From: Escherichia phage vB_EcoS_MM-1
Sequence record: PV577657
Strand: one strand, 5' to 3'
Length of the DNA: 64,000 nucleotides
Positions 16,657 to 51,752 of the stretch are shown here, piece after piece. How positions within the stretch are numbered: the first letter of the stretch is position 1; each line of letters begins with the position of its first letter. A model generated the notes under the pieces. It made no database searches and was not told where the DNA came from. It was given only the letters and a program-made list of their open reading frames with translations. Made by a program: the position numbers and the translations under genes.

Positions 16657-16726
16657 GAATTTCCTCTCTCATTAATTTATGAACTTATTATACAGAATTT
16701 TAAGGCTTAAAGCAACTGAATTTTTT
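16657..16726 (-). promoter_or_regulatory. conserved early promoter plus leader
   Basis: TTGCTT-like -35, TATAAT -10, leader aaattaatgagagagg. Confidence 0.6.
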
Positions 16727-16732
16727 AATTAC

Positions 16733-17164
16733 TTACCAATCGTTAACAACGCCGGAGAACTCAGAAGCAAAAACTTTTTCAAATTTTTCTGCAATTTCAG
16801 GATGATCTTTACAGATTAACTCAATACATGCTTCTGGAGCCATTCCTTCGTCTTCAGGATCACCATAATACTTGTCCCAAAGATCATCTGGGATGATGTG
16901 TTCTGCTAAATCTTGAAAAGAGATTAACTGATAACGTTCTGCTTCCTCGGGGATAAGGATTTCACAAAGATCTTTATCTATATCACTACGATAATCAGCA
17001 ATTAGCAGGGCATTACAAGCATGACACTCCCAGACCATCAAGCGTTCAGAAATAGGATTAGACTTATCCTGAATGTAGGACTGAAACAGGGTTCGGAAAG
17101 TAGCTTTAACTTGTTCAAACTTATCTGCTGCTGCGAAAACTAGAGCTTTATCAACTTTGTTCAT
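16733..17164 (-). CDS. hypothetical acidic protein
   Basis: 143 aa. Confidence 0.5.
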   Translation of the reverse strand: MNKVDKALVFAAADKFEQVKATFRTLFQSYIQDKSNPISERLMVWECHACNALLIADYRSDIDKDLCEILIPEEAERYQLISFQDLAEHIIPDDLWDKYYGDPEDEGMAPEACIELICKDHPEIAEKFEKVFASEFSGVVNDW

Positions 17165-17331
17165 TTTGTCTCCTTCTCATCAATTTATAAAGTAATTATA
17201 CAGAAACTTAGGCATTTTAGCAAATAAAACTTTTAATTAAAATGCCTAGTCCTGTACCAACAGCAATACAAATGATTATAAGTATTGCTACTGTTTGTAT
17301 GATTCGTTTAATAATAGCCTCAGCTATATAC

Positions 17332-17955
17332 TTAGACATTTATATCACCACGCAATACGGCAGCTACATCTTCCCCTATTTGTAATACTTCACCAGTAGT
17401 GCAGTTGACCACTCTATCATAGCTAGTAAACTTACCTGATACAATATCTTCTAGAGGAATAGGAGTTTTGCTCATCTCAAATGAGACATTGATGTAACGA
17501 GGGTCACGTAGAGAAGTAGTATGTACGTGTCCGTGAATATTTAACTTGCCCCGAAGTTCATTGGGGTGCAAAGGACAATGAGATAGCCAAAACTTTTTGC
17601 CACCACCAGTCTGTTTACCTAGAGCCTGAATATCATCGTAAACTTCTACTAAATCTTTAATACAGAGTCCTTGACGTTCCGCATCGTGGTTGCCCATAAT
17701 AAGTTGATTAGGAACATTGTGGATAACCGACTTTAGCTTGGCCAAGCCTTCACGACCTACTGCAATGTCTCCTAACAAGATGAGTTTAGTACGCTTGCCA
17801 ATGTGCTTGGAGAGAGTATCCAGAATGTACTCGTCATGTTCTTTCATATTCTTAAACCACGGACGGAAACGTAATGCCCCAGGATGATCTAAGTGCAAAT
17901 CCGACCAAAATTTAACTTTCATTATTCTTTCCTTTATTCCGAATAATATTATCAA
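17332..17955 (-). CDS. calcineurin-like metallophosphoesterase
   Basis: motifs SDLHLD, GDIAVGR, GNHD, GHVH; likely true start at internal MKVKF; contains a 14-nt partial copy of the 15-mer repeat. Confidence 0.6.
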   Translation of the reverse strand: MIILFGIKERIMKVKFWSDLHLDHPGALRFRPWFKNMKEHDEYILDTLSKHIGKRTKLILLGDIAVGREGLAKLKSVIHNVPNQLIMGNHDAERQGLCIKDLVEVYDDIQALGKQTGGGKKFWLSHCPLHPNELRGKLNIHGHVHTTSLRDPRYINVSFEMSKTPIPLEDIVSGKFTSYDRVVNCTTGEVLQIGEDVAAVLRGDINV

Positions 17956-18202
17956 CCCAAGTAGTTAATACTCTAGCTTTAAACTCTTCGGGAGTTTCTG
18001 TTTTCTTAAAGGCCTCCTCATTAAGGAGGAAAATACTAAGTCTTGTTTCTACCTCTATCTCAGTAGGGGAGTCAAAACAAAAATTGGCTGATACTCCAGA
18101 GTACCATACTCCAGTATCCCCCTTACTGAAGGCATTAACTAGTGCCCTCCAACGAAGGGCATCAAGATGTGTTGAACTTGATTGTTCTTGTTTACTATCC
18201 AT
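17912..18202 (-). CDS. hypothetical protein
   Basis: 96 aa. Confidence 0.4.
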   Translation of the reverse strand: MDSKQEQSSSTHLDALRWRALVNAFSKGDTGVWYSGVSANFCFDSPTEIEVETRLSIFLLNEEAFKKTETPEEFKARVLTTWVDNIIRNKGKNNES

Positions 18203-19077
18203 TAAAGAATCCTCTGTATGCCACAGCTATCTTCTCGAAGCGTGGTAAATGTTGCGATTTTCCCAGTTTCATCATTAACCTGCGCAATCGTCAACTGCCC
18301 ATTGAAAACACCGCCAGTATCAAGATAAACACGGTTTTTATAAAGAAGCGGGTAAGGTACTCCAGTATGTCCGTGAAACACGAAATCTACTCCTTTAACT
18401 TCTGGCACTTCTACCATGTATTTTTCTTTAAACCCAGAATAACGCTGGAAATAGGGGTGTTCCTCACCATTTTTAGACAAGTGGAAGCCTATCTCTTGGA
18501 TTACATCTCGATCCCATAAATATGGTTCAACATAGTATCCAGGATGGTCATGTGGGTCTTCCTTAGCTGCTTCTACTTGTGTAATAAGGTTATCCCATAC
18601 TGGGGTTTCCACTTCGTTACCGCATTCTTTGTACGTAAAAGGTACACCACCATGAACAACACCATATTTCTTGCCACGATGCAGCACAGTCAGAAATACT
18701 GGAAGTTTTTCAGCCATGTCTTCGGCAATATTTTTAATGGTATCTGCATCTAGTTCATTCATAGCCCACATACCACCGTTATACATCCAGTTAGCCCAAT
18801 CTCCTACAATCATAAACTGGTCATGATTTCCACGGACACTGATAAAGCGTGGGTTATACAGGAATTTAGCTAGAACTTGTAGATTCTGCGTGCCTCGGTC
18901 AATTAAATCCCCTACACATACAACGCAATCTTTCTTGCCGTTATATCCAGCTAATTTCAACGCATCTTCTAGCAAATCATTGCATCCATGAATATCACCA
19001 ACGAAAAACAAGTTGGCGTCATCCGGCACTACTAGAGTTTTATGTACATTAAATTCTTTTTTCATAATTATTCCCAA
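18202..19077 (-). CDS. serine/threonine protein phosphatase (PPP family)
   Basis: GDIHGC, GDLIDRG, GNHD motifs. Confidence 0.7.
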   Translation of the reverse strand: MGIIMKKEFNVHKTLVVPDDANLFFVGDIHGCNDLLEDALKLAGYNGKKDCVVCVGDLIDRGTQNLQVLAKFLYNPRFISVRGNHDQFMIVGDWANWMYNGGMWAMNELDADTIKNIAEDMAEKLPVFLTVLHRGKKYGVVHGGVPFTYKECGNEVETPVWDNLITQVEAAKEDPHDHPGYYVEPYLWDRDVIQEIGFHLSKNGEEHPYFQRYSGFKEKYMVEVPEVKGVDFVFHGHTGVPYPLLYKNRVYLDTGGVFNGQLTIAQVNDETGKIATFTTLREDSCGIQRIL

Positions 19078-19313
19078 ATAACAGTTAAAATAGTTGTGCC
19101 ATAATCATTAGATAGTTGGAGAGTATAACCCTCTTTATAGAGGGCTTTTATAGCTTCATAACTAATTTCATCACGATTAAACTGTACAAAAGAACCTCCA
19201 ATCTCCACAGAAGAAACTATTCTCTTTTTAACATACTTATATGGTTTCTTTCTGCTATTAAAAAGTGCAGCTCTGTTTATCCTGGCTAAACGTTTTGCTT
19301 GTTCCGCTAACAT
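19068..19313 (-). CDS. hypothetical protein
   Basis: 81 aa. Confidence 0.4.
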   Translation of the reverse strand: MLAEQAKRLARINRAALFNSRKKPYKYVKKRIVSSVEIGGSFVQFNRDEISYEAIKALYKEGYTLQLSNDYGTTILTVIWE

Positions 19314-19370
19314 TTAATCCTCCAATCAATTTATATAAGTATTATACCAAAATTTTTAGCAAAAAGCAAG

Positions 19371-19402
19371 TAAAATAAAAGCCTGATCAGCTAAGATCAG
19401 GC
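19371..19402 (-). terminator. rho-independent terminator
   Basis: gcctgatc / gatcaggc stem, U-run on minus strand. Confidence 0.55.
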
Positions 19403-19410
19403 TTTGTTTA

Positions 19411-20125: not shown

Positions 20126-20200
20126 AATATATACCTCTCTTAACTAATTTATGTATATATTATATAATAACTAGGGCTAAAAGTCAACTACTTTTTTATC

Positions 20201-25201: not shown

Positions 25202-25267
25202 ATTTAATCCTCTTGCCTCAATCTATAAACATATTATACAAAAGTTTGGGCATCTAAGCAACTAAAA

Positions 25268-25311
25268 TTTTATTATAAAAATAGCCCAGTCGCAAAAGTG
25301 CAGGCTGGGCT
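25268..25311 (-). terminator. rho-independent terminator
   Basis: agcccag / ctgggct stem, U-run on minus strand. Confidence 0.5.
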
Positions 25312-26773: not shown

Positions 26774-27086
26774 AGTCGCAATTATAACGACAAGTAAAAG
26801 AACCGGAGCTATTAGTACGTTGAGTGGTTATTTCACCGTGTTTGCTAATAGTAACGGCTGGAGTAGAGAAGTTTTTATTAGTATAGATTTCTACCTTACC
26901 ATTACGTTCTTTAACATCACGAACTTTACCATACTCGGTAATAATGCCGTTCTGTTGGACTTTAACATTACCATTTTTCATAGAAACTTTGGTAGACGCC
27001 AGAGAACCGAAACTAACTGCGGAGATCATCAGTGCAATAATAAACTTATTCATCTTCATCCTCCCCACTACACCACTGATTACCAT
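26754..27086 (-). CDS. secreted protein with signal peptide
   Basis: 110 aa, N-terminal hydrophobic signal. Confidence 0.45.
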   Translation of the reverse strand: MVISGVVGRMKMNKFIIALMISAVSFGSLASTKVSMKNGNVKVQQNGIITEYGKVRDVKERNGKVEIYTNKNFSTPAVTISKHGEITTQRTNSSGSFTCRYNCDFEGEDE

Positions 27087-27146
27087 CCCATGCGGTAATG
27101 ATCATAACACCATTACTCATGATCTTTTCTGTAAAAGTAATCCTCA

Positions 27147-27440
27147 TTATAGCAACTCGTCTAAGCAAGAGGTATATTTAAGTTTACCATCTTTATCTAC
27201 TTTGATTTCGACTTCCGCTCGTGGTACTTGACGAACTACACCATGAATCATCTTATAGCGAATGCCTTTAGCTGGTTCATGCTCTTTTGGAAATACTTGC
27301 TTAACCGTTACTACCTTAAAACCCTCACGCGGTGTTAACACTACTACTTGATCACCTTCTTTGATCTTCCAAGAGCCAGGAAATTCATAGGTATAGCGTT
27401 GACCACCAGTTTGGAACACAACAGAAAGATAACGTTTCAT
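27147..27440 (-). CDS. hypothetical protein
   Basis: 97 aa; conserved promoter/leader directly upstream. Confidence 0.5.
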   Translation of the reverse strand: MKRYLSVVFQTGGQRYTYEFPGSWKIKEGDQVVVLTPREGFKVVTVKQVFPKEHEPAKGIRYKMIHGVVRQVPRAEVEIKVDKDGKLKYTSCLDELL

Positions 27441-27689
27441 TTGGCTTCCCTCTCATTAATTTATATAAATATTATAACAATAAATAAGAGAGAAAGCAAA
27501 TGAATTTTTAATAAAGTTTAGTCACTTCATAAACTATACTACGAGATTCTTTATTACGTTCTATTAAATTAGAATATGCTTTTTCAGCTTCATTTTTAGT
27601 ATTAAAGTCTATAACGTGGGAGGTATTCGCTCTATTTGATTGACTATACCAGATAACTACTAATAATTTAAACATAATAGTCCTTAAGT

Positions 27690-27776
27690 TGGTGCTGGGC
27701 ACAGGATTCGAACCTGTAACGGGATTACTCCTCCTGATTACAAATCAGGTGCATTCAACCATTCTGCCAACCCAGC
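27690..27776 (-). tRNA. tRNA, type II (long variable arm), anticodon loop UUUGUAA (anticodon UGU)
   Basis: 7-bp acceptor GCTGGGT/GCCCAGC, Ser-like D-loop GGTTGAA, T-loop TTCGAAT, encoded CCA; anticodon and body type do not match a standard isotype. Confidence 0.5.
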
Positions 27777-27784
27777 AGAACCCG

Positions 27785-27949
27785 TTATTTCAACGGGATT
27801 TCTTTTTCAATAACAGGAGACTTATCAGTCATAACCGCCATTGCCATTTGTTGTAGAAATTCAAAGGTGAAGGCTACACGTTCTTCACCAATCTCTACTT
27901 CTACACGTTTCTTTTGTTTATCGATCTTGACTTTTAGGTTATCAGCCAT
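27785..27949 (-). CDS. small hypothetical protein
   Basis: 54-aa ORF below track cutoff. Confidence 0.3.
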   Translation of the reverse strand: MADNLKVKIDKQKKRVEVEIGEERVAFTFEFLQQMAMAVMTDKSPVIEKEIPLK

Positions 27950-28193
27950 TAGAGAGTACAGTACTGGTAGTTGGCAATACTACAGATGAAGCAACAGTGT
28001 TTAAATGCTTTCCCCAGTCTAGGTTAAATTGTTTTCGAAACTCTTCATAAGGTTCTTCTGGATAAAAGCTAAAACCTCCTTTCTCATCATTCAGGATAAC
28101 AGAGCCGTCAGTTTGTTCGTATGCTCGGTATGTTTCTCCAATAACAATAACTCGTTTTTCGGTACTTTTATTACGAAACTCAAAAACGTGCAT
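27942..28193 (-). CDS. hypothetical protein
   Basis: 83 aa. Confidence 0.4.
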   Translation of the reverse strand: MHVFEFRNKSTEKRVIVIGETYRAYEQTDGSVILNDEKGGFSFYPEEPYEEFRKQFNLDWGKHLNTVASSVVLPTTSTVLSNG

Positions 28194-28209
28194 AATGTTT
28201 CCTTAAAGT

Positions 28210-28285
28210 TGGAGCGGCTAGAGGGAATCGAACCCTACTCAGCGAGGCTTGGAAGGCCTGCGGCACAACCCGTGTGCTTAACCGC
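28210..28285 (-). tRNA. tRNA-Gly (UCC)
   Basis: acceptor GCGGTTA/TAGCCGC, anticodon loop CUUCCAA, T-loop TTCGATT, discriminator U, CCA encoded. Confidence 0.65.
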
Positions 28286-28293
28286 TTATTGTT

Positions 28294-28369
28294 TGGCTGG
28301 AGAAGGAGGAATCGAACCTACCATTAACGGAGTCAAAGGCCGTTGTGCTAACCGTTACACTACTCTCCA
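28294..28369 (-). tRNA. tRNA-Gln (UUG)
   Basis: U1-A72 acceptor, anticodon loop CUUUGAC, discriminator G. Confidence 0.65.
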
Positions 28370-28375
28370 ATTATT

Positions 28376-28451
28376 TGGCTGGGATGCCACGGATCGAACG
28401 TGGAACCTTCGGAGTCAGAGGCCGACGATCTGCCAATTGATCTACATCCCA
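28376..28451 (-). tRNA. tRNA-Gln (CUG)
   Basis: U1-A72, anticodon loop CUCUGAC, same architecture as the neighbouring Gln. Confidence 0.65.
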
Positions 28452-28463
28452 ATAATTTTTATT

Positions 28464-28658
28464 CTACGGAAAAATTGTTGTTGGCTCAGATTCTTCCAAA
28501 CGTTTGCCTTCATGATCAACACGAATAACGCCGCATCCTTCGCAAATCACAACTGCACCATAACCTTCTTTGACCTCAGCTTCTGTAATCAAACCAGAAA
28601 GATCACCAGTATCTTTACCCCACATATCAATGGAGCATTGTTTGCAGAAATCAGCCAT
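28464..28658 (-). CDS. small Cys-containing protein
   Basis: 64 aa with CxxC pairs. Confidence 0.35.
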   Translation of the reverse strand: MADFCKQCSIDMWGKDTGDLSGLITEAEVKEGYGAVVICEGCGVIRVDHEGKRLEESEPTTIFP

Positions 28659-28683
28659 ATTTTATTTCCTATTTAAGTTAATT

Positions 28684-28760
28684 TGGGGTGGCTAGTGAAA
28701 TTCGAATCCACATAGGCCTGATTCACAATCAGGATCATTAACCAATTATGATATAGCCAC
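28684..28760 (-). tRNA. tRNA-His (GUG)
   Basis: 5' GTGGCTA, anticodon loop UUGUGAA, 3' end AGCCACCCCA. Confidence 0.7.
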
Positions 28761-29126
28761 AATTGAAAACTCGCAGGGTTAGCGAAACCTTCCTCAATTA
28801 GCATGTTCTAGAATACTAATCAAGTTATCTCCTATTGCACGCAGCTCAAGACGAGTACGAATTTTCAATTGTGGCGGCTCTCAGAAACTCTTCTACTCTA
28901 GTCTTAGCAGCTTACTCCCGAACGCATGTCGGGGAAGTCTTACTAAGCGCATCAAATAGCACCGTTACACTTTGAGCCATTGGTGTATCAAGAAGCAGAA
29001 GGACTTGAACCTTCACGAGATAGACCATTTATCTCAGCCGCTTTATGAGGTATGTTGCAGGGAGTGGATGTTCCCTATAAACCTTTTAGGCAGCCCCGTC
29101 TACCGATTCCGGCATACTTCAGGATT

Positions 29127-29221
29127 TGGAGGTAGGTAAGGGGATCGAACCCTTACACCGTATCACTACGATCAACCGATTTCAAGTCGGAGTCCAGCGC
29201 CAGCCATTGGATTGACCTACC
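29127..29221 (-). tRNA. tRNA-Ser (UGA)
   Basis: 95 nt, long variable arm with 6-bp stem, anticodon loop CUUGAAA. Confidence 0.55.
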
Positions 29222-29233
29222 ATATAAATTGTT

Positions 29234-29324
29234 TGGCGGAAGAGGAGAGATTTGAACTCTCAAGCCGTTTTACCAGTCAGCCACTTTCCAAGCGGTTTTC
29301 GTCACCAATTCGATTTGCTCTTCC
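29234..29324 (-). tRNA. tRNA-Ser (GGA)
   Basis: 91 nt type II, anticodon loop UUGGAAA, discriminator G. Confidence 0.6.
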
Positions 29325-29436
29325 AATAACAAGATGATGCCTCTATCACACCAGGCAGTTACGCCTCGCTGGGATTCGAACCCATTAAAACAGCTCAACC
29401 GAGATAGTAGGTTTAATTTACTCTGACCATCAAATT

Positions 29437-29513
29437 TGGTGCGTGACAAGGGATTCGAACCCTCAAAACCCGACTTCTAAGGACGGTATGTATGCCAATT
29501 CCATCAATCACGC
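29437..29513 (-). tRNA. tRNA, anticodon loop CUUAGAA (UAG, Leu-type) with short variable arm
   Basis: good acceptor and T-arm; anticodon stem has one U-U mismatch; type I body is unusual for Leu. Confidence 0.45.
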
Positions 29514-29518
29514 GTATT

Positions 29519-29597
29519 TGGTGGAGAATAACGGAATCGAACCGTTCTGATGTCCTCGGTGCAAGCGAGGTGTCCACTCCATGCAGACCCATTCCCC
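29519..29597 (-). tRNA. tRNA-Ala (UGC)
   Basis: G3-U70 pair in acceptor, anticodon loop CUUGCAC, discriminator A. Confidence 0.65.
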
Positions 29598-29810
29598 AAA
29601 TTATTTAGTTTACTAAGGCTATTAGCTCGGCGTAACTACAGCACCTTCGCTTCGAGCGGAAGGAACCGCGTCATCTCGCAAACCCGATACACTATTCAGT
29701 TGCCACTGAATCTAGTGGACTAATCTAGAACTTCTCCCGAATCGTAGGGATCGTGCTTTTTGGCAGCCAGTCCTAGGTCGAACTAATACCTTAGTGAACT
29801 ATGATGAGGA

Positions 29811-29880
29811 TTTCTCCTCATCAATTTATATAAATATTATAACAAGAAATTAAGCATTAAGCAACTGCGTTTTTCTTGAA
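29811..29880 (-). promoter_or_regulatory. conserved early promoter reading into tRNA genes
   Basis: TTGCTT -35, TATAAT -10, conserved leader; no ORF follows. Confidence 0.55.
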
Positions 29881-29882
29881 AT

Positions 29883-29961
29883 TGGTAGATCGCCTGGGAC
29901 TCGAACCCAGAACCTTCCGATTAAAAGTCGGATGCTACTAAACCTATTGAGCTAGCGATCT
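29883..29961 (-). tRNA. tRNA-Lys (UUU)
   Basis: anticodon loop CUUUUAA, T-loop TTCGAGT. Confidence 0.65.
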
Positions 29962-29962
29962 A

Positions 29963-30130
29963 TTAGTAACCATTATACACTTCTTTAATAGAGTGGACTT
30001 TTAAGTAAGGGTGATTAGTACTAAACTCTACCATTACTTCATCCCAATTTTTACCATAATGAGCGAGTAAGGATTTTGATGTATTCTTACCTAACCGTTT
30101 GTCACTTACTACTAATCGAAATACTTTCAT
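29963..30130 (-). CDS. small hypothetical protein
   Basis: 55-aa ORF with GAGGA RBS, between tRNA genes. Confidence 0.3.
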   Translation of the reverse strand: MKVFRLVVSDKRLGKNTSKSLLAHYGKNWDEVMVEFSTNHPYLKVHSIKEVYNGY

Positions 30131-30150
30131 TTCGAAATCCTCTATTAAAA

Positions 30151-30228
30151 TGGAAGCGGGTGCAGGAATCGAACCTACCTCTTTCTAGCTTATGAGACTA
30201 GCGATCTCTACCAGAGATCTAACCCGCA
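30151..30228 (-). tRNA. tRNA-Met/Ile2-type (CAU)
   Basis: anticodon loop CUCAUAA; position 1-72 reads as U-U mismatch. Confidence 0.5.
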
Positions 30229-30234
30229 ATTGTT

Positions 30235-30310
30235 TGGTCAGTGCGGCAGGACTCGAACCTGCGACCCGAAGCATCCAAGGCTCCCACGCTACCAACTGCG
30301 CTACGCACTG
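30235..30310 (-). tRNA. tRNA-Pro (UGG)
   Basis: C1-G72, anticodon loop CUUGGAU, discriminator A. Confidence 0.65.
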
Positions 30311-30319
30311 TTAATTCTT

Positions 30320-31318: not shown

Positions 31319-31344
31319 AGCATATTTCTCGTACTAGTTTAATT

Positions 31345-37860: not shown

Positions 37861-37894
37861 ATATTTCCTTTGTTTTAGTTACAGTTAATAAAAT

Positions 37895-37969
37895 TGGCCG
37901 AGGTGACAGGATTCGAACCTGCATAAAGGAATTTAGAAGACTCCTGCCTCTCCCTTAGACTACACCCCG
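37895..37969 (-). tRNA. tRNA-Arg (UCU)
   Basis: anticodon loop CUUCUAA, T-loop TTCGAAT. Confidence 0.6.
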
Positions 37970-38803
37970 TTTAAGTATTTTTAAGAACTCTCGTAAAAAC
38001 TCTTAAAAATACAGACGATACCGGGAGAGTCATAAGTCTCACTCATTAAGTATTTCAAGACAAAATACAGTAACGTCTATTATTTTCCAGTTTAAGTCAG
38101 GGTGACTTAGTGGTTATGTCCTGCGGTATATTGAGGACTCGGTTAGGCTTGGGGTCATGACTTCCCACCTTTTGCTGCTACTCAACAGGAGTTATCGCGA
38201 ATTACCTGTGCTATTGTGCACCATTAGTGACATCTCTCATGTCAGCATTTCCCACTTTGTGGATAGCTTGAAAAACTACTCCGATATGGAGAAAGAACTT
38301 CACTATCCTAGAATACCTTCTAAAGTTCTTCTTTAGCCTGGACATAGTTAAATCGTAATAAAACTATTCAGCAGACTGGTTGGTTAGTCTGGAACCAACT
38401 ACCGCGTGGTTTAGGCAGTGCGCAACTAACCTCGGAAGCTTTTATGTTAAAAGCATCAGTTATCCAGTTCTTACCGACCGTAGGATTCGAACCTACATCT
38501 TCCACCAGTTACGGCTTGATAATACCAATTATACTAGGACGGCAGTGTTACTACATAAGTGATTTCCACACCCCACTATTTATAAATCAGAGAAGAGTTT
38601 AGGGGAGAGGTTTCAGACGCCTCATTTTACACGTTCTAGCCACTAACCGGGATTGCCGCCCCCTGTGTACTAGTTTTACAACTAACCCACCGACTCTATT
38701 CAATGCGCTCCGGTTGGGATTCTGCACTCAGCGTAATCGGCTCGCTGTTCCCTAATTTATGAATATATTATACAGAATTTATAAGCATTTAGCAAATGAA
38801 TTT

Positions 38804-39238
38804 TTAGAAAAATTCACTAGCAATCAAAGCAGTTGTTTTACCGTCATAACGTCCGGGAAATTCTGCCTTAATAGTTTTCATTAATAGAGCTTTGGTAATA
38901 CCTGGGTTTAATTTAACCAGTTCTGCAAAATACTCACGAATCTGAACCTCAGTCAGTTGACTTGGCTGATACTCTTGCAGCATGGAATAAAGCAGTTGCT
39001 CATAGTCTACATCAGTAGGAACTTCCATACCAACTTTAATAGCGCGTTGTTTTGCATTTTCTAGAGCCTTAATCTGAGCTTTCAGATAGGCTACGAACTC
39101 GGTTCGAGTAACAATGTCTTTATCAATACGTTGCAGATCACCAATCATGGTCTGAAGATTAAGTGCCCGTTCCTTATCACCGTGAGTACGTGCTAGACTA
39201 AGTAGTGCACGAAGGGTCATTAGAATATTTTCACCCAT
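38804..39238 (-). CDS. hypothetical protein
   Basis: 144 aa. Confidence 0.45.
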   Translation of the reverse strand: MGENILMTLRALLSLARTHGDKERALNLQTMIGDLQRIDKDIVTRTEFVAYLKAQIKALENAKQRAIKVGMEVPTDVDYEQLLYSMLQEYQPSQLTEVQIREYFAELVKLNPGITKALLMKTIKAEFPGRYDGKTTALIASEFF

Positions 39239-39408: not shown

Positions 39409-39476
39409 ATTTCGCTTCCTCTCATTAATTTATGAAAGTATTATACAGAAATTTAAGTAGCTAAGCAAGTAAATTT

Positions 39477-39944
39477 TTAAGTTTTAGTGACAACAGGTTT
39501 ATAGAATGTATGTCCCTTAATCTTAGTTGTTTTCTTAAACTTCTTTGTCCAGTAAGGTTTATCTTTACCACTATGGAAGTATAGTGCTCCATATGTAGGA
39601 TCTTGTGGTAAATCAACGTAGTATATCACTCTAGCTAAATTCTTAGCGGTTTGCCAAGCCTCATCAGTTTTATCAACTTTTGGTCTCTTAGATACCCAAG
39701 AGAACTGGTTAGACTGATATACTACTTTACAGTAGGAATCTGGGAATTTACCGGAGTTTACACGGTTTTTAGTAACATGTGCAATCGCCGTCATTCCCTT
39801 TATGCCCTCACCACGACTTTCGAAATAGATATTTTTAGCAATGCAATCTATTTCTTTTGCATCGTGCGATGCCTGACTACTAAAGCTGAAGGTAAGGGCA
39901 GCTACTAAAAGCAAAGCTGCCTTCATTCTTTTTACTCCTGCCAA
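39477..39944 (-). CDS. secreted SleB-like cell-wall hydrolase
   Basis: signal peptide; 'AIAHVTKNRVNSGKFP', 'QFSWVS', 'GALYFH', 'PYW' match SleB/Hydrolase_2 pattern. Confidence 0.55.
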   Translation of the reverse strand: MAGVKRMKAALLLVAALTFSFSSQASHDAKEIDCIAKNIYFESRGEGIKGMTAIAHVTKNRVNSGKFPDSYCKVVYQSNQFSWVSKRPKVDKTDEAWQTAKNLARVIYYVDLPQDPTYGALYFHSGKDKPYWTKKFKKTTKIKGHTFYKPVVTKT

Positions 39945-40249: not shown

Positions 40250-40691
40250 AATAGCCTCGTTTCATCAATTTAAAAATATATTATACAGATAACTTAGTAA
40301 ATTAGCAAATACATTTTTAAATTGTGAAACTAGTAAACCGATAAACAGCCTAGAGGCGCCACAGGCCATATCTTATGAGCCATGTACCTTTGATCTAGGG
40401 TTTGAATCATCAACGAATACTTTGCATCTTTTAGCTTTAGAAGTTTAGAAGTTTGAGTTCTTTAAACTTTTCAGCTTTCATACTTAAATGTTGATCTTTG
40501 AAGTTGTGTCGGTAATATCAACGACGCTTTGTTCTTACGTGTCAGCTTAAAAGGCTGGTGTAATAAACATAATCTCCAATAGATTATACTTTATAGTATG
40601 GTCAGCGGTCTTATTTAACCTCGTATTTCAACCGCTGCTGCGAGGTAAGATGCTTGGGCTTTCGTCTACCGATTTACTAGCTTTTAAATTA

Positions 40692-41566: not shown

Positions 41567-41636
41567 ATTTGTTTTCCTTTTATTGTTTTCTCAAATTTAT
41601 GAATATATTATACAGAATTTTGGAGCCGGAAGCAAA

Positions 41637-42338
41637 TCAAATTTTCATTTTTTCGATCATAGCTGCAACACAATAGCTCTCAACTAAGGCATCAAATGCT
41701 GGGTCGTGCTTAACCGGATAGATCCCATAACGAATGGTGTCCATCTTCTCCATTTTAGCTATTGCCCAGCTAATACCTTCGGTCTCTAGAGCTTTATAAC
41801 TGTATCCAGCTTGCATCCAGAGGTTACGAAGAGATCGAACATTACCCAAATTCCAGAATTTCCACGGAACTACCTCTTCATTGGTTCCAGCATGGAACGT
41901 GTTTGCAGAGTAGATAGTCATATCAAACTCTGGACCGTTTCCATAATACAAAGCATTTTCGCCTAAAGCCAACTCCATAATATTTTTAGCCATAGAGTAG
42001 GCAGCATAGTTAGAGCCGAGTTTATTAGTGCAATGATGTTTACCATTTTGGAAGGCAATCAGTTTTGGATTACGTTCCTTCATAGCTTCCATAATGTGGA
42101 TAGCAGACGGGCTATTTTTAGCTTGATCCATCCAGAATGCTAGAGTAGATGCTGTAACTTTGGCACCAGAATTAAGTTGATCTTGTACATCCAAAGTAAC
42201 AAATATTAGATCAGGGTCTTTATCAATTCCATGCATAGCCACAAAAGCGAAAGAAGGCATTGCGATATGAGTAGTACCACAATCTCCTGGAGTTCCCAGA
42301 GATTCAATATCTAGCATACCAAATGGTTTTACTTTCAT
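41637..42338 (-). CDS. DEDDh-type 3'-5' exonuclease-like protein
   Basis: 'MLDIESLG' (Exo I D-x-E), 'HDPAFD' (H-x4-D). Confidence 0.5.
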   Translation of the reverse strand: MKVKPFGMLDIESLGTPGDCGTTHIAMPSFAFVAMHGIDKDPDLIFVTLDVQDQLNSGAKVTASTLAFWMDQAKNSPSAIHIMEAMKERNPKLIAFQNGKHHCTNKLGSNYAAYSMAKNIMELALGENALYYGNGPEFDMTIYSANTFHAGTNEEVVPWKFWNLGNVRSLRNLWMQAGYSYKALETEGISWAIAKMEKMDTIRYGIYPVKHDPAFDALVESYCVAAMIEKMKI

Positions 42339-43439: not shown

Positions 43440-43514
43440 TATTTGTTTTCCTTTTTGTTTATCAATTTATGAAGTATATTATACGAGAATTTGAAGCGTT
43501 TAGCAAATGAATTT

Positions 43515-43964
43515 TTAATTTATTAACTGTAAGCTTCTTTTAATTTCAGACCTTACTTGCATCAAAAGGACTCCTAAAGTATTATCCCCGATGCCTCGGC
43601 AAACACCCCAATATGTATCTCCCCAGGTATTTCCTTCGATCAAAGTTGCATTTTCTGTTGCTAACAGTTTATCTCTTAAATCAGGAATTGCAAACTTTAA
43701 TCGTAAAAGCTCTAGCATTACATCATCTTTTACTTTATCCCAGTCAGAGCGTAGGGTTAATTTACGTCCTATACGTTTAGCAACTCCTGCATTTAGGGAG
43801 CGAAGTACATGAGCTACATCATCTTTTTGGTCGGATTTCATAGCCTGAAAAGCATGTTCTACAGTATCAGCATGCCATATCTCATTTAGATATTCGAAAG
43901 TAATTGGTGATAAATAAAAGTTAGATAAGAAACTATAAGTACCTTTAAATTCAGTAATCTTCAT
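43515..43964 (-). CDS. NADAR (YbiA-like) domain protein
   Basis: 'SFLSNFY', 'EHAFQAMK', 'LELLRLKF', 'DTYWG', 'GDNTLGVLLMQVR' align with the YbiA/NADAR pattern. Confidence 0.6.
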   Translation of the reverse strand: MKITEFKGTYSFLSNFYLSPITFEYLNEIWHADTVEHAFQAMKSDQKDDVAHVLRSLNAGVAKRIGRKLTLRSDWDKVKDDVMLELLRLKFAIPDLRDKLLATENATLIEGNTWGDTYWGVCRGIGDNTLGVLLMQVRSEIKRSLQLIN

Positions 43965-44245: not shown

Positions 44246-44322
44246 AAAGCCCTCCTCACTTTCAATACGAATATTATACTAAATTATAGGGCTTTAAGCA
44301 AGAGAATTTTTTAATTTATTTA

Positions 44323-45080: not shown

Positions 45081-45280
45081 GGCTTTTCACCTTCTGCTAC
45101 ACTTCTGGTTTTTGGTGGGATGGGAGGGTTAGGTTTTATAGCCGCTAATTCCCTATCTAAGAATTCCTCTATTGCTCTATCTACAAAGTAGTCATAGGGT
45201 AAATGATAATGTTCTGATAGAGTAAGAAGTTTGTGCTCTTGGCTTTCTGTTAAATAAACTTTCTTTCTAAAGAGTCCCAT
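45077..45280 (-). CDS. hypothetical protein
   Basis: 67 aa. Confidence 0.4.
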   Translation of the reverse strand: MGLFRKKVYLTESQEHKLLTLSEHYHLPYDYFVDRAIEEFLDRELAAIKPNPPIPPKTRSVAEGEKP

Positions 45281-45374
45281 ATGTGTATCTCCAATTTATA
45301 AAATATATTATATTTAAATTTCACTAAATAAGCAAATGAAATTTAAATATAATAGCCCCGAAGGGCTATTTAAA

Positions 45375-47904: not shown

Positions 47905-47975
47905 TGATTTTCCTCTTTCTCACTATTTCAGGAATATTATAGCAAATCTGGTAGCGATTAGCAAGTAAAATTTCA
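47905..47975 (-). promoter_or_regulatory. early promoter of nrdB operon
   Basis: TTGCTA, 17-bp spacer, TATAAT, leader with GAGGAAAA RBS. Confidence 0.6.
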
Positions 47976-48010
47976 AAGAAAAAGGAGACCCGAAGATCTC
48001 CTTGTTTTTA

Positions 48011-50341
48011 TTAAATAGTACAACCGCCTGATGCACAACCAGCTGCTTCTTCTCCAGCACCACCACCATTTGCGGTGTTGAAGTTAGCATAATACCAAGT
48101 TTTCCACCCGTATTTAACAGCAGTCATGAAATCACGAACTACTACTGGGCCAGGAATAATTTCATTCTCAAACTTGGTGTAGTCGTAGTACATATTAGTA
48201 CTAACAGACTGGCTGAAGAATTTCTGCATAGTTGCTACCCATTTGATCCACTCGATACGATCTACATCATAAGCCAATTTATAGCTCATTAACGTTTCCC
48301 AATCGGTTGCACCTGGAGCAATTGCAATTACTTTATTTACTGCACTACCCTTGATAGATACAATCTTACGAGGTGGTTCGATAGAGTTAGTAACACCTAA
48401 CAGAACAGAAGAACTTTCTCCCGGCATCTGAGCAGTCAGAACAGAGTTACGCATACCATATTTCAGAATATCTGCACGCAGAGACTCCCAGTCCATTTCT
48501 AGACCTACGGATACCAGCTCATCAACAGTTTTCTTGTACGTGTCGATTACCAGAATTCCTTTAGATGGTTTAGTACGATCAAACCACTCACATGCACCCT
48601 GTTCCTTAGCCAGGCGTACAGAGGCTTTATGCAGGAAGTAAGACAGTTTTTCAGCCTCACGGTGGATCCAGTTACGAGCTTCAATACCTTCGTAAGCCAG
48701 ACCTTCTGCTGCCATTGCACCTGCTGCGTTCATTAGGCCAATACCGACATTACGACGTTTCTTGGCCGTATATTCCATAGTTGGGAACGGATAATCCTGA
48801 ATTTCAATAATTGTATCAACAAACTTCAGAAGGATGTAGCAAGTTTTTTCCCACTCAGCCAGAGATTCCATGCGTCCAAGTACAACACCACCTAAGTTAC
48901 ACAGAGATACTTCACCAATATCCTCCGGCTTCATTTGATCAAGCTGCTCTTTTGTCTTATACAGCTCTGTGATATGATGGAACGGGCGAGTAGGCTGAGT
49001 AATTTCAACACAAAGGTTTGTCATACGGATCGGATCAAGGAAATTACCGTGACGATTAGATTCCCCGATGTGATGAGCATACATACGTCCTGTTTCCATT
49101 CGGATACGTAGCCAAGTATCTAGAATTTCTTTTGCAGAGACTTTAGGAGCTGCTGGAACTGTTTTTCCTTCATGGTCGATCTTTGTAAGAGATGCCACAC
49201 GTTTCTCCGCTGCCACGTAGATTTCTTCAAATTTAGCCTCGTCATCACTATAAAACGCTTCATGAACTTCTGGAGCATAGAAGTATGACATTAGCGTAAT
49301 ATCTTCATTTTTCAGATAACGTTTTAACAAAAGATTGTTGAAGCTCAGAGAATAATCCATCTTATCGATTTTATTCTCATCTGTAGCACGTTGTTGCTTA
49401 ACCTGCATCAATTGAATGATTTCAGGATCGAAATACGGATAAGACACTGTAGCAGAACCACCACGAGTTTGCTGAGTATTGGCCTTTACTGAGCGGTCAA
49501 TGTGTCGATAATATGGCAGTTTTCCGGAATGCGGGAATGCCCCATTTCGCACCGGATCAGCAATTGATCGGCTTTCAAGATGATACCCGATTCCCGCTCT
49601 GGCTGCGACCATTTTGAAGACGATGTGCTCGGCGGTGTCGATTGAATCCAACGTGTCAGTGGAATCCACGAGGCAGCAACTAGCAAATCCACGGTCACTA
49701 GAGCGCAGGCCAACCAGTGGCGGCGTAGGAACGTTGATTTTGTGGAGCGACATTGCGTTGTAGAGGTCGATTGCATCTAAAATTGTCCAATTAGGTTGAG
49801 ATAACATCGCCATTGCCATACCCATGTAGGCAAACTGCGGGGTTTCATAAATTTCACCAGTGGCTATATTACGACGGGAATACTTATCAAAGAACTGCTT
49901 CAGCCCACCACTAGTAAAAAGACGGTCACGATCATGGTCGATAACCTGATTCAGAGCTTCAAATTGCTCATCGGTAATCCATGCACTCATATCTTCCCAT
50001 GCACCTACACTAACCATGTGGTCATGGAAGAAGCGTAGAGAAGGTGGTTCGAAAGAATCATAAAGACGTTTACGCATTTGCGCAAGACGTAATTCCTTTG
50101 CTGGCACATCGTATGCTGGGTTATCTTTGATAAGACTTTCAGCAGCTTTAATTAATGCGTCCATCAGAGTGTCGGAATCTACAACCCCTTTAGGTAGAGT
50201 TTTTTGAGCAGCCATAGTAATGGCTGACCAGCTTACATCAACTGTTTTGCAACCATACTCTGCCCAACCATTGAGTTTTTCAGGAGCAAAGTCTTCTACA
50301 GTACCGTCACGTTTAATTACTTTTTCAATGCGATGGCTCAT
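48011..50341 (-). CDS. nrdA: ribonucleotide reductase class I large subunit
   Basis: starts 'MSHRIEKVIKRDGT' like NrdA; track's 35-aa N-terminal extension rejected because it spans a terminator hairpin. Confidence 0.8.
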   Translation of the reverse strand: MSHRIEKVIKRDGTVEDFAPEKLNGWAEYGCKTVDVSWSAITMAAQKTLPKGVVDSDTLMDALIKAAESLIKDNPAYDVPAKELRLAQMRKRLYDSFEPPSLRFFHDHMVSVGAWEDMSAWITDEQFEALNQVIDHDRDRLFTSGGLKQFFDKYSRRNIATGEIYETPQFAYMGMAMAMLSQPNWTILDAIDLYNAMSLHKINVPTPPLVGLRSSDRGFASCCLVDSTDTLDSIDTAEHIVFKMVAARAGIGYHLESRSIADPVRNGAFPHSGKLPYYRHIDRSVKANTQQTRGGSATVSYPYFDPEIIQLMQVKQQRATDENKIDKMDYSLSFNNLLLKRYLKNEDITLMSYFYAPEVHEAFYSDDEAKFEEIYVAAEKRVASLTKIDHEGKTVPAAPKVSAKEILDTWLRIRMETGRMYAHHIGESNRHGNFLDPIRMTNLCVEITQPTRPFHHITELYKTKEQLDQMKPEDIGEVSLCNLGGVVLGRMESLAEWEKTCYILLKFVDTIIEIQDYPFPTMEYTAKKRRNVGIGLMNAAGAMAAEGLAYEGIEARNWIHREAEKLSYFLHKASVRLAKEQGACEWFDRTKPSKGILVIDTYKKTVDELVSVGLEMDWESLRADILKYGMRNSVLTAQMPGESSSVLLGVTNSIEPPRKIVSIKGSAVNKVIAIAPGATDWETLMSYKLAYDVDRIEWIKWVATMQKFFSQSVSTNMYYDYTKFENEIIPGPVVVRDFMTAVKYGWKTWYYANFNTANGGGAGEEAAGCASGGCTI

Positions 50342-50410
50342 TTGGCTTTCCTTTTTATAGTTATCAGGATTTAAGGAATATTCTACTTTATTATCGGTCA
50401 TTAGGCAAAT

Positions 50411-50456
50411 AAAATTTTCTGATAGAAAAGGCCCGAGTATTTTCATACCCAGGCCT
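50411..50456 (-). terminator. rho-independent terminator
   Basis: aggcc / ggcct stem, U-run on minus strand. Confidence 0.45.
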
Positions 50457-50482
50457 GTATATTACCAGTCTAGCTTTTTAGC

Positions 50483-50704
50483 TTATTCAATTACTTTAGC
50501 TCTAGCTACTTCTTTTAATAGAATATCTATGGAGGTGCTCAGCTCGTTATAATTGAATGGTTTATTTGGATTTGAGGTTACAATTTTCCACGCTAGGGTT
50601 GTCTTAGGACTTTCTTCCCCTTCCTTACGTGTAATCATATTAGCAGCACTCAGTGAAGTACGATGTATTTTAGTTTTACGGCTCAGATGAACGACGTTTC
50701 CCAT
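50483..50704 (-). CDS. hypothetical protein
   Basis: start trimmed to ATG 1 nt after phoH stop, GGAAGG RBS. Confidence 0.35.
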   Translation of the reverse strand: MGNVVHLSRKTKIHRTSLSAANMITRKEGEESPKTTLAWKIVTSNPNKPFNYNELSTSIDILLKEVARAKVIE

Positions 50705-50705
50705 A

Positions 50706-51467
50706 TTACACCTTCCCCATGTCTTTAAAAATATCATAGAATGCTTTAGACTCAACAGAACGAACGTTATCAATCAATTCGATCATTGAGAATGGGGCAT
50801 TTTCGTATCTCTCATAGACTTCCATAAGGAGTGCTAGACCTGAGTCACCTTTAATGTCTTTCTGAGCTATATCTCCGCAGATAATTAAACGGCAGTCTTG
50901 TCCTACACGAGTTAGGAGACAAATCATTGCCTCAACGGAAATATTCTGAGCTTCATCGACAATTACATAGGAGTTGTTGAAAGTTCTGCCACGAGCATGT
51001 TCGATAGCCAAAAATTTAATTTTCTGACGTTCGACATATCCCTTATAGGCATGTTCGCCGATGGCCCATTTCATACCATCAGCTATTGGCTCCAACCAAG
51101 GCTCTAGCTTTTCTGCTAGATCACCAGGAAGCATACCAAGAGACTTACCTAGAGGTTCATTAGGACGTACGAGAATCACTTGCTCAATATCTGAGTGAAT
51201 GTCTACGAGTTCCTGAGCTGCAAGAACGGACGGAATAAAGGTTTTACCAGTACCTGGCTCACCGATACCCACAGTCACTGTGTTGTTCTTGATCATATTG
51301 ATATATGATTTTTGCTCGCGGTTTTTACCTACTAGGGATTTAGCAACTGGGTTAGCGTAATCATTAGAAAAATCAGCCTGAATTACGTTATTCTCATATT
51401 TGTTGCCACGCTTTCTTGAACCATTGCGGTTCTCTCTTTTTTGACGTGCTTTTCCCATAAATAACAC
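50706..51467 (-). CDS. phoH: PhoH-like ATPase
   Basis: Walker A 'GEPGTGKT', 'VIVDEAQN' Walker B. Confidence 0.7.
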   Translation of the reverse strand: MLFMGKARQKRENRNGSRKRGNKYENNVIQADFSNDYANPVAKSLVGKNREQKSYINMIKNNTVTVGIGEPGTGKTFIPSVLAAQELVDIHSDIEQVILVRPNEPLGKSLGMLPGDLAEKLEPWLEPIADGMKWAIGEHAYKGYVERQKIKFLAIEHARGRTFNNSYVIVDEAQNISVEAMICLLTRVGQDCRLIICGDIAQKDIKGDSGLALLMEVYERYENAPFSMIELIDNVRSVESKAFYDIFKDMGKV

Positions 51468-51752
51468 TCCTATAGTGTACTTCGCTAACAGAGGATCAAC
51501 AAAAAGATCTTGTTTATCAACTTACAAATATATTATACCAATATATACAGTAAAAAGCAACTACAATTTTAAATAAGCCTATGATATTGCATTTAAATAA
51601 AAAATTTGCTTGCTTTTAACGTGAGATGTGTGATACTAGATAATCATTTTATATCGCGTGTACGAGTGCGTGATTATACAATTTTTAATAGAGATTGGCA
51701 AATAAAATTTTTTGACTCAGATCATGTTACAGAACTTTATAGTAAAATATTG

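Follow-up and report, generated by a model that had tools for sequence, protein, structure and literature searches.

The 64,000-nucleotide stretch of Escherichia phage vB_EcoS_MM-1 analyzed here (PV577657; hereafter the window) raises the question of what a promoter-plus-leader cassette is doing in so many copies, in front of protein genes and tRNA genes alike. The window belongs to a T5-like phage (Tequintavirus). It aligns collinearly with T5 (80-96% identity), and Escherichia phage vB_EcoS_MM-2 is 100% identical across the 8-kb segment searched (27000-35000). An earlier note had claimed at least 20 repeats of a near-identical TTGCT(T/A)-N17-TATAAT between 16657 and 51560, and the count was borne out, as the window contains 22 exact copies of TTGCTW-N17-TATAAT where shuffles predict 0.16 (shuffle maximum 2). 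The minus strand carries nineteen of these matches (16687 to 51560) and the plus strand the other three (53728, 62548 and 63764). A PWM built from the exact sites and run over the window scored members at 29-65 bits (shuffle maximum 4.4) and added the variant copies 61522(+), 32792(-), 33163(-) and 20159(-) as well as the weak copies 50380(-) and 13398(-), bringing the total to about 28 (22 exact and about six PWM variants). The repeat is therefore real within the range first proposed but reaches past it on both sides. Cassette direction follows that of the downstream genes in all copies, with a strand switch at about 51.6-53.7 kb, and the PWM scan found no cassette in the pre-early region (1-13,000). 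A generic sigma-70 promoter scan showed no overall enrichment (48 found, 57 expected) because TTGCTT shares only three of six positions with TTGACA, so that the signal is specific to the TTGCTW variant.

The cassettes are almost certainly the early-class promoters of this T5-like phage, dependent on sigma-70, each fused to the very short 5' UTR ahead of the leading gene in a transcription unit. The promoter reading of the earlier note is upheld by orthology, as 27 of 28 copies pair one-to-one with 75-nt "promoter" features annotated in T5 (AY543070), with 50-75 of the 75 nt identical; the T5 orthologues include P-N25, P-N26, P-H207, P-D/E33, P-F30, P11, P13a/b, P14a/b, P15a/b/c and P16-17. Several of these T5 promoters have been mapped or cloned experimentally. 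The family is real but already described, namely as the very strong host-RNA-polymerase promoters of T5 and its relatives, and from orthology and sequence we infer that each individual copy would be active in phage vB_EcoS_MM-1. T5 promoters have been verified by primer extension and are used by E. coli RNA polymerase, and early promoters have a common ATATT discriminator, N25 reading TATAATAGATTCAT from -12 to +2 (PMC7472727). The T5 early promoters studied by the Bujard and Ksenzenko laboratories (P-N25, P-N26, P-H207, P-D/E33, P-K28a) share the architecture of the window cassettes, with the A-tract, TTGCTW, 17 bp, TATAAT, A/T-rich discriminator, ATAAATT at +1 and purine-rich transcribed region. 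Differences from T5 are at the strain level only: the N25 orthologue has TTGCAT in the window and TTGCTT in T5, a 115-nt deletion follows P14b in the window, and several promoter-adjacent HNH endonuclease genes are absent from it. The consensus of the 32 promoters of T5-like phage AKFV33 (TTGCTw and TATAATA 17-18 bp apart, AAAAATT at about -43 and TAAATT at +1; Niu et al., 2012, PMC3326045) equals that of the window cassettes, although that paper took the +1 region as "AT-richness" only, did not tell ATAAATT apart from the Shine-Dalgarno sequence and did not discuss copies ahead of tRNA genes. Vibrio phage Ceto, a distant member of the family, carries the same cassette, including CATAAA(T/G)T (13/19 sites), and an 81-nt cassette copy used as query gave 3,787 matches across 850 phage records.

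Read from 5' to 3', the cassette has an A-tract (about -45 to -40) followed by TTGCTW as -35 hexamer, TATAAT as -10 hexamer 17 bp further on, and an A/T-rich discriminator with A at position -6 in 21 of 22 copies. The predicted first transcribed base is the A of ATAAATT, 6-7 nt 3' of TATAAT. The cassette closes with a purine-rich Shine-Dalgarno sequence and a start codon, usually at +21 to +28; both elements, the codon at +21 to +35 and the spacing 5-9 nt, are present in 20/28 copies, and these start codons mostly coincide with annotated CDS starts. The leader is non-random, but the 16-mer quoted in the earlier note as conserved, aaattaatgagaggag, is one variant only, with seven matches in the window at up to three mismatches, six of them within cassette leaders. 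What is truly conserved is ATAAATT followed by a purine run (+8 to +20: 80% purine, 7% C). Exact ATAAATT lies 5-9 nt past the -10 hexamer in 15/22 copies (0.04 expected), but it is missing at 44273, 47936, 51532, 62548 and 32792 and is therefore not obligatory. TAAATT was found upstream of 12 of 20 promoter-proximal genes and of none of 69 internal genes, 51 of which have Shine-Dalgarno cores, while ATAAATT is kept ahead of tRNA-Ser, RNA2H and RNAX. Because it is kept before tRNA and stable RNA and is absent from the 69 internal ribosome-binding sites, ATAAATT (+1 to +7), the most conserved part of the leader, is a promoter element and not a translational one, whereas the GGAG/GAGG-type part is an ordinary ribosome-binding site. 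The idea of a shared translational signal thus holds only for an ordinary Shine-Dalgarno sequence 5-9 nt before the start, and not for ATAAATT.

Most minus-strand copies precede protein genes. The first is a weak relative, TTGACG-N17-TATAAT, at 13372-13438 (T5 p13212), without the ATAAATT leader. It is followed by the orthologues of p16245 (16661-16727, 75/75 identical) and P-F30 (17169-17235, start codon at +25), by p18550 (19315-19381), with a terminator hairpin immediately upstream (19378-19405), and by p19368 (20133-20199), a variant with TTGACT as -35 that is 75/75 identical and keeps ATAAATT. The p24443 copy (25207-25273) has ATAGATT as its transcribed start, while the P11 orthologue (27445-27511) has an out-of-frame ATG at +9 and its true ATG at +25. 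The P13a orthologue (30523-30590) has its start codon at +27, the P15c orthologue (33137-33204), a TTGCCT variant with an 18-bp spacer, at +25, and the P15a orthologue (34904-34970) its true ATG also at +25 (34899). Further along are the P-D/E33 orthologue (39414-39480; unstructured leader, ATG at +26), p43067 (40254-40320), p44393 (41581-41647, ATG at +35), the P-H207 orthologue (43451-43518, ATG at +33), p46337 (44247-44313), which lacks ATAAATT and has AGGAGG as Shine-Dalgarno sequence, a copy ahead of thymidylate synthase (45280-45347) with a hairpin just upstream, and p50061 (47910-47976), with a terminator upstream (47982-48003). In T5, the HNH endonuclease gene hegH lies between p50061 and nrdB. 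A weak variant, TTGCCT-N17-TAGAAT (50354-50420, PWM 17.5), is without a T5 promoter annotation; a hairpin lies upstream (50429-50456), and downstream are a Shine-Dalgarno sequence and an ATG at 50341, which from the sequence is probably the true nrdA start. The final minus-strand cassette, p53638 (51506-51572), is 75/75 identical, and no Shine-Dalgarno sequence was found within 45 nt of it.

On the plus strand, the first cassette is p55708 (53716-53782), with a terminator upstream (53693-53717). The P-N25 orthologue (61510-61576), with TTGCAT as -35, gives a transcript starting ATAAATTTGAGAGAGGAG, the P-N26 orthologue (62536-62602) has a long leader with its ATG at +52, and p65284 (63752-63818) has a GTG start at +25. 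This last copy lies upstream of a gene annotated from 63823, at the T5 ligA position.

Other minus-strand copies precede tRNA and stable RNA. The cassettes reported at 29811 and 32040 are real, but the stretches behind them are not tRNA-only. The first, the P13b orthologue (29810-29876), has no ORF downstream and drives a stable RNA of about 190 nt (a homologue of "RNA2H"), followed by tRNA-Ala and tRNA-Leu; a 9-bp hairpin from +7 to +28 of its transcript (29802-29823, minus strand; -13.8 kcal/mol, z = -4.5) pairs the Shine-Dalgarno-like GAGGAG with CCUCAUCA. The second, the P14b orthologue (32052-32118), is followed by a 10-codon remnant of T5 ORF T5.070 (32016-32048, minus strand), which was left by the 115-nt deletion relative to T5 and continues into tRNA-Cys (31954-32029). 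The remaining three lack a Shine-Dalgarno sequence. The P14a orthologue (32766-32832) is a variant with TTGCTC as -35 and is followed by tRNA-Tyr from +58. In the P15b orthologue (34348-34415), whose promoter core shares sequence with the 3' end of the gene upstream, the transcript reads AUAAAUUC and then directly tRNA-Ser (34271-34359), with ATAAATT 8 nt ahead of the tRNA. The P16-17 orthologue (38741-38807) leads to the "RNAX" stable-RNA region, which contains a tRNA-like element (38472-38543) and tRNA-Arg (37895-37969). Rfam, run over the window, returned tRNAs only.

As for how such a promoter may work, the alpha subunit of RNA polymerase would recognize the A-tract at about -45 to -40 much as it does a proximal UP element. 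The proximal-subsite consensus of UP elements is AAAAAARNR (-46 to -38), and by this consensus the A-tract is a putative one. TTGCTW and the perfect TATAAT, 17 bp apart, would be bound by sigma-70, the A/T-rich discriminator would favor a stable open complex, and transcription would begin at the A of ATAAATT. The initial transcribed sequence, A/T-rich and then purine-rich and C-poor, may allow the polymerase to leave a promoter that it otherwise binds very tightly. In mRNA units the purine run would double as Shine-Dalgarno sequence for a start codon at about +21 to +28 in an unstructured leader, whereas tRNA and stable-RNA units would keep the promoter and ATAAATT, with the Shine-Dalgarno sequence absent, hidden in a hairpin, or present as a relic of a deleted ORF. 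In N25, how fast and how productively the polymerase escapes is set by the initial transcribed sequence, with the native version the fastest (PMC12464699), and in the account given there, which cites Kammerer (1986), replacement of +3 to +20 lowered full-length RNA about 10-fold. The N25 "DSR" used with its antiDSR variant (Kammerer et al., 1986; Hsu laboratory, PMC12464699) reads, from +1 to +20, ATAAATTTGAGAGAGGAG, a purine-rich sequence without C to which the conserved leader of the window corresponds. Those experiments concern one promoter, N25, and its engineered variants; by analogy, we infer that the escape role may extend to the other copies.

The conservation of the module well past the -35 and -10 hexamers, out to Ceto, would also fit another reading, in which the discriminator and ATAAATT form a class-specific tag atop basal promoter function, read either by RNA polymerase after phage modification or by a DNA-binding protein of the phage to end early transcription when the phage switches from early to late. 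The pre-early region is free of cassettes. Klimuk et al. (PMC7472727) reported that the discriminator is the main difference between early and late T5 promoters, that gpT5.026 reduces the binding of RNAP to the -5/+2 segment, and that in a mutant without gene 026 early transcripts go up and late transcripts down; the mechanism of the T5 temporal switch is described as unknown in the same paper (PMC7472727). However, the documented escape role of the transcribed sequence explains the conservation well enough, the window contains no late promoters for comparison, and the module has no evident operator-like symmetry. We regard such a tag as a tentative possibility and on balance unlikely.

The cassettes might instead be mobile or recombinogenic regulatory repeats, like the PeSLs documented in T4-type phages (PMC2839356, PMC4122927), with the shuffling and deletion of genes between T5-like genomes as their chief role in evolution. 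Like PeSLs, they are conserved early-promoter motifs that occur in many copies among small variable genes, and several of them are likewise fused on their upstream side to a terminator hairpin (19378-19405, 47982-48003, 53693-53717). The cassettes amount to about 28 direct repeats of 60-75 bp with roughly 70-80% identity, and 8 of 50 indel or replacement edges relative to T5 fall inside them (a uniform null predicts 1.9; P = 0.0007), with the hegH insertion just after a promoter and a tRNA-Val loss just upstream of one as examples. This enrichment is gone when the null is limited to intergenic DNA (5 observed, 5.4 expected, P = 0.66). Furthermore, none of the inspected junctions showed an indel with cassettes on both sides or a leftover hybrid cassette, and the stem-loop that defines PeSLs is missing from most cassettes, making this explanation very improbable.

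That the leader is an RNA-processing signal common to early transcripts, as the earlier note had suggested, or a stability signal (for instance an RNase cleavage site or a 5' stabilizer, respectively), found no support. The motif does stand ahead of tRNA and stable-RNA precursors that need processing, and the P13b copy has a strong 5' hairpin. However, the motif coincides with the predicted 5' end, which leaves nothing upstream to cleave, mRNA leaders are unstructured (0 to -1.7 kcal/mol), the hairpin occurs in the P13b copy only, the tRNA-Ser precursor leader would be just 8 nucleotides, compatible with generic RNase P removal, and no Rfam family other than tRNA was returned; such a signal is extremely improbable.

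The out-of-context ATG described for the conserved leader is present, but at +9 in only 8/28 copies; it is out of frame in six of the seven copies followed by a gene, and the eighth copy (P13b) precedes stable RNA. That it is a functional start, for instance of a regulatory mini-ORF or of proteins extended at the N-terminus, is extremely improbable despite its recurrence in eight cassettes and the one in-frame case, at 16672 in the p16245 orthologue, as it is absent from P-N25 and every Ceto copy, is only 8 nt away from the 5' end and has no Shine-Dalgarno sequence upstream, the properly spaced one serving the next start, and the annotators of T5 and MM-2 picked the downstream, Shine-Dalgarno-preceded ATG at 16654. 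The leader ATG is incidental, though the leader and nearby ATGs mislead gene callers. Of the two examples given for this, 16672 is indeed a leader ATG, whereas 34950 is an ATG in the promoter spacer of the P15a orthologue (TTGCTTGAATGCT). The GenBank record of the identical phage nevertheless backs the claim in spirit: in PV577658 one CDS starts at the spacer ATG 34950, nrdA appears to be over-extended across the terminator-promoter module, and four ORFs of 33-37 aa fully cover cassette cores, one of them, of 33 aa, lying wholly atop the P13a cassette.

The 64-kb window contains 22 instances of the TTGCTW-N17-TATAAT arrangement, where dinucleotide-preserving shuffles predict 0.16 and never gave more than 2, which rules out chance or AT-rich low complexity as the cause of the repeat. 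Nineteen of these strict copies lie on the minus strand, from 16687 to 51560; the other three are plus-strand copies, at 53728, 62548 and 63764. Derived from the 22 copies, a weight matrix scored them at 40-65 bits (maximum in shuffled sequence 4.4) and added further variants that differ by a single hexamer change or have an 18-bp spacer, at 61522(+), 32792(-), 33163(-) and 20159(-), as well as weak copies at 50380(-) and 13398(-); the same scan detected none in the first 13 kb. The promoter cassette repeated at least 20 times, as reported in an earlier note made by eye, is confirmed by these counts. A generic sigma-70 scan of the window returned 48 sites against 57 expected, i.e. no enrichment, and it misses the TTGCTT copies because this hexamer matches TTGACA at only three of six positions.

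Alignment of the copies showed that conservation extends past both hexamers, to an A-tract, the base following TATAAT, the discriminator, the motif ATAAATT and a purine run. The A of ATAAATT is numbered +1, based on the published assignment of positions -12 to +2 of the T5 promoter N25 as TATAATAGATTCAT (Klimuk et al., PMC7472727). The spacer between the hexamers is 17 bp, rarely 18, and the A-tract lies a short way upstream of the -35 hexamer (A in 18-21 of the 22 copies at -45 to -42), while the base directly after TATAAT is A in 21 of 22. The discriminator is A/T-rich and six or seven bases long. Among the strict copies it has A at -6 (21/22), T at -5 (16/22) and T at -3 (17/22), with G and C scarce across six positions, and it is of the ATATT type that is common to all early promoters (PMC7472727). 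In 15 of the 22 copies (0.04 expected) exact ATAAATT, which was absent from the search pattern, follows 5-9 nt past the -10, and the leader from +8 to +20 is 80% purine with 7% C, versus 20% C window-wide. A non-random leader does exist, then, as had been noticed by eye, but the literal 16-mer put forward as its conserved form is one variant only, with 7 matches at ≤3 mismatches, 6 of these in cassette leaders.

Comparative analysis connected the cassettes with the early promoters of phage T5. The segment 27000-35000 (8 kb) is 100% identical to Escherichia phage vB_EcoS_MM-2 (Tequintavirus, Demerecviridae) and has 96-99.9% identity to many T5-like phages. The window aligns collinearly with the first ~65 kb of T5 at 80-96% identity, interrupted by numerous small insertions, deletions and replacements. 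It therefore reaches from the terminal repeat and pre-early region, through the leftward early region that contains the tRNA cluster, into the beginning of the rightward early (replication) region. The 'promoter' features of the T5 record (AY543070), 75 nt each, show the cassette architecture, and for 27 of the 28 window copies a single one of them is the best match, in collinear order and with 50-75 of 75 nt identical (the matched T5 promoters include P-F30, P11, P13a/b, P14a/b, P15a/b/c, P16-17, P-D/E33, P-H207, P-N25, P-N26). The P-N25 orthologue is located at 61522-61576 and its transcript starts ATAAATTTGAGAGAGGAG. T5 promoters have been confirmed in infected cells by primer extension (PMC7472727). 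For the T5-like phage AKFV33, a consensus of TTGCTw and TATAATA with a 17-18 bp spacer was published from 32 copies, including AAAAATT at about -43 and TAAATT at +1 (Niu et al., PMC3326045), and the window copies conform to both of these outer blocks. From the T5 annotation and these two reports, the cassette is a known and named family, already described in T5 and its relatives, with the -43 and +1 blocks of its consensus in print. Judging from orthology, the cassettes are T5-type (Tequintavirus) early sigma-70 promoters, and the promoter reading of the earlier note is correct. Initiation with early kinetics by the E. coli sigma-70 holoenzyme would be expected by analogy, the literature support for it coming from the T5 orthologues. 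The early promoters of T5 belong to the oldest and most thoroughly studied strong promoters of bacteria, and P-N25 serves as the 'T5 promoter' in commercial expression vectors.

A different type of promoter is found in the divergent control region (51673-51781) between the leftward and rightward early genes. A perfect consensus TTGACA-N17-TATAAT at 51753-51781(+) lies upstream of nrdD and a TTGCCA-N17-TATAAT at 51673-51701(-) faces the other way; both are without the ATAAATT leader and so fall outside the cassette family.

The leader itself consists of two parts. A GGAG, GAGG or AGGA core with a start codon 5-9 nt further on was identified in 20 of the 28 copies. These start codons fall between +21 and +35, most of them between +21 and +28, and nearly all are annotated CDS starts; since they are so near +1, the leader is essentially the entire 5' untranslated region. 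Internal genes of the operons carry a Shine-Dalgarno in 51 of 69 cases, and TAAATT stands upstream of 12 of 20 promoter-proximal genes versus none of the 69 internal ones. The purine-rich half is an ordinary Shine-Dalgarno, complementary to the 16S rRNA 3' end, and ATAAATT is tied to the promoter and not to the gene, as is also borne out by the copies driving non-coding RNA, in which the Shine-Dalgarno is absent or non-functional. A promoter-intrinsic initial transcribed sequence followed by an ordinary Shine-Dalgarno replaces the shared translational or processing signal suggested earlier, of which the translational component holds for the purine half and fails for ATAAATT.

Downstream of the orthologue of the T5 promoter P15b (34375-34403) come AUAAAUUC and, immediately after it, tRNA-Ser at 34359, and the P14a orthologue has tRNA-Tyr at +58, both without a Shine-Dalgarno. 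The cassettes at 29811 and 32040, considered in the earlier note to precede tRNA-only stretches, are present, although what follows them is not tRNA only. The one at 29811 (P13b orthologue) leads into a well-conserved homologue of the T5 stable RNA 'RNA2H' and then tRNA-Ala and tRNA-Leu. Its transcript opens with a 9-bp hairpin at 29802-29823(-) (-13.8 kcal/mol, z = -4.5) that locks up a Shine-Dalgarno-like GAGGAG, the P13b leader being the only one with a significant hairpin on folding. The ~190-nt region after the hairpin has 97-98% identity to RNA2H and matches no Rfam family. At 32040 (P14b orthologue) a Shine-Dalgarno, an ATG and 10 codons remain of the small ORF T5.070, and the cassette lies 42 nt from tRNA-Cys only because of a 115-nt deletion in that ORF. 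The P16-17 orthologue leads into the region annotated in T5 as stable 'RNAX' (~720 nt in T5). Its equivalent here occupies 38543-38760 and 37970-38471(-), includes a tRNA-like element at 38472-38543 (Rfam, 35.5 bits) and ends at tRNA-Arg; from ~12 nt into the transcript it has ~150 nt where T5 has 3 nt, and a 42-aa GenBank CDS without a Shine-Dalgarno is called within it. In the tRNA cluster (27690-38543) ARAGORN and Rfam detected 19 genes each, in differing sets: tRNA-His (28684) and tRNA-Ala (29519) were found by ARAGORN only, 34190-34264 and 38472-38543 by Rfam only. Non-overlapping calls bring the cluster to at least 21 tRNA or tRNA-like genes; tRNA-Val and several other T5 tRNAs are missing from this phage.

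Concerning the way the cassette works, host sigma-70 RNA polymerase would be recruited by the A-tract, which we take to resemble a proximal UP element (AAAAAARNR consensus), together with the near-consensus hexamers and the optimal 17-bp spacer, and the A/T-rich discriminator would then favor a long-lived open complex. Such tight binding would make promoter escape the rate-limiting step. According to a study on N25, its native purine-rich and C-free +3 to +20 sequence gave the fastest escape, and replacement of this stretch by antiDSR lowered full-length RNA ~10-fold (PMC12464699, citing Kammerer et al. 1986). By analogy, we infer that the other copies, including those with no protein product, retain ATAAATT and the purine run under the same escape constraint. 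In the mRNAs the purine run would double as a ribosome-binding site on an unstructured leader.

Comparison of the window with T5 showed no extra conservation of the cassettes (~92% identical, like the neighbouring DNA) at this short distance. The informative comparison is with Vibrio phage Ceto (NC_042094), a distant member of the Demerecviridae which belongs to a different subfamily from T5 and whose coding DNA cannot be aligned with it. Ceto has the same cassette, with CATAAA(T/G)T six bases after TATAAT, in 13 of the 19 TTGNNN-N17-TATAAT sites within 40 kb, all 19 being on the gene strand. Its cassettes extend from 6724 to 33329 in two sub-types, agttaCATAAAGTTGAGAAACGGAGAT and atataCATAAATTGAAACGGAGAT. 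Additionally, an 81-nt cassette copy used as query matched 3,787 places in 850 phage records, and both results point to an old, family-wide constraint. The discriminator and ATAAATT might, beyond a role in strength and escape, form a tag marking early against late promoters, read by the gpT5.026-modified RNA polymerase or another phage factor that times early shut-off. The module is shared between E. coli T5 and Vibrio Cetovirus and persists in copies whose transcript encodes no protein, and Klimuk et al. (PMC7472727) hint at such a role for the discriminator and gpT5.026; we nevertheless regard this tag as unlikely. The small additions made here to the published picture, namely that ATAAATT moves with the promoter and the Shine-Dalgarno with the gene, and that the cassette is conserved in Vibrio phages, both bear on the timing of the T5 early-to-late switch.

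Cassettes could also act as recombination junctions, like the promoter-terminator cassettes (PeSL) of T4-type phages. With a uniform null, the 8 junction edges out of 50 that fall in cassettes amount to an apparent enrichment (P = 0.0007), which disappears under an intergenic-only null (5 of 21 intergenic edges versus 5.4 expected, P = 0.66, in one genome pair). Each PeSL combines an early promoter with a conserved stem-loop/terminator, whereas here an adjacent hairpin accompanies a minority of copies, and the window cassettes resemble PeSLs neither in stem-loops nor in junction placement. Finally, an RNA-processing role of the leader, also raised in the earlier note, is unsupported, as the motif lies at the predicted transcript 5' end, typical mRNA leaders are unstructured (0 to -1.7 kcal/mol) and Rfam at gathering threshold yields tRNAs only in the window, leaders and stable-RNA regions included.

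The practical use of the cassette lies in annotation. In the MM-2 record (PV577658) cassettes coincide with wrong gene starts and tiny spurious ORFs; recognition of the cassette offers a simple rule for correcting first-gene starts and operon boundaries in the hundreds of T5-like genomes now entering the databases. The conserved leader ATG is real in 8 of 28 copies, at +9 (ATAAATT[A/G]ATGAG), and is not a general cassette feature, being found neither in P-N25 nor in any Ceto copy. It lies 8 nt from the transcript 5' end with no Shine-Dalgarno upstream, and in 6 of the 7 copies with a downstream gene it is out of frame. At 16672 the ORF start is indeed this leader ATG, in frame with the Shine-Dalgarno-preceded ATG at 16654, so that the longest ORF begins there; both GenBank records (MM-2 and T5) place the gene start at 16654. 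The 34950 start also misled a gene caller, although the ATG responsible belongs to the promoter spacer (TTGCTTGAATGCT) and shares its frame with the true start, which comes 17 codons later; the 'DNA primase' CDS starts at 34950 in the MM-2 record and after the promoter in that of T5.

Four ORFs of 33-37 aa in the MM-2 record lie wholly over cassette cores, at 30514-30615, 40265-40369 and 47923-48036(-) and 51475-51576(+), one of them also spanning a terminator. These 'hypothetical proteins' are probably gene-caller artefacts. At three of these sites no ORF is present in the T5 reference, and beside the promoter of the fourth, 47923-48036, T5 has a different one, hegH. The T5 HNH homing-endonuclease genes hegD, hegC, hegA and hegH are missing here (28303-28459, 29127-29476, 33611-34177 and 47929-47934), hegH being located in T5 exactly between a cassette promoter and nrdB. 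The nrdA gene is annotated at 48011-50446 in PV577658, with a T5 CDS of the same length. Its 5' extension runs, on the minus strand, across a hairpin of 12 bp carrying a T-run (50429-50456), a weak promoter (TTGCCT-N17-TAGAAT) and a Shine-Dalgarno. What we take to be an ATP-cone-like sequence (KVIKRDG...; MSHRIEKVIKRDG) starts at or just after ATG 50341, 35 codons inside the annotated gene, and nrdA appears to be over-extended by these 35 codons in PV577658. Automated product names in the same record also look implausible for two small early-region ORFs: the one of 81 aa at 19068-19313 is named 'major head protein', and that of 73 aa at 50483-50704 'tail length tape measure protein'.
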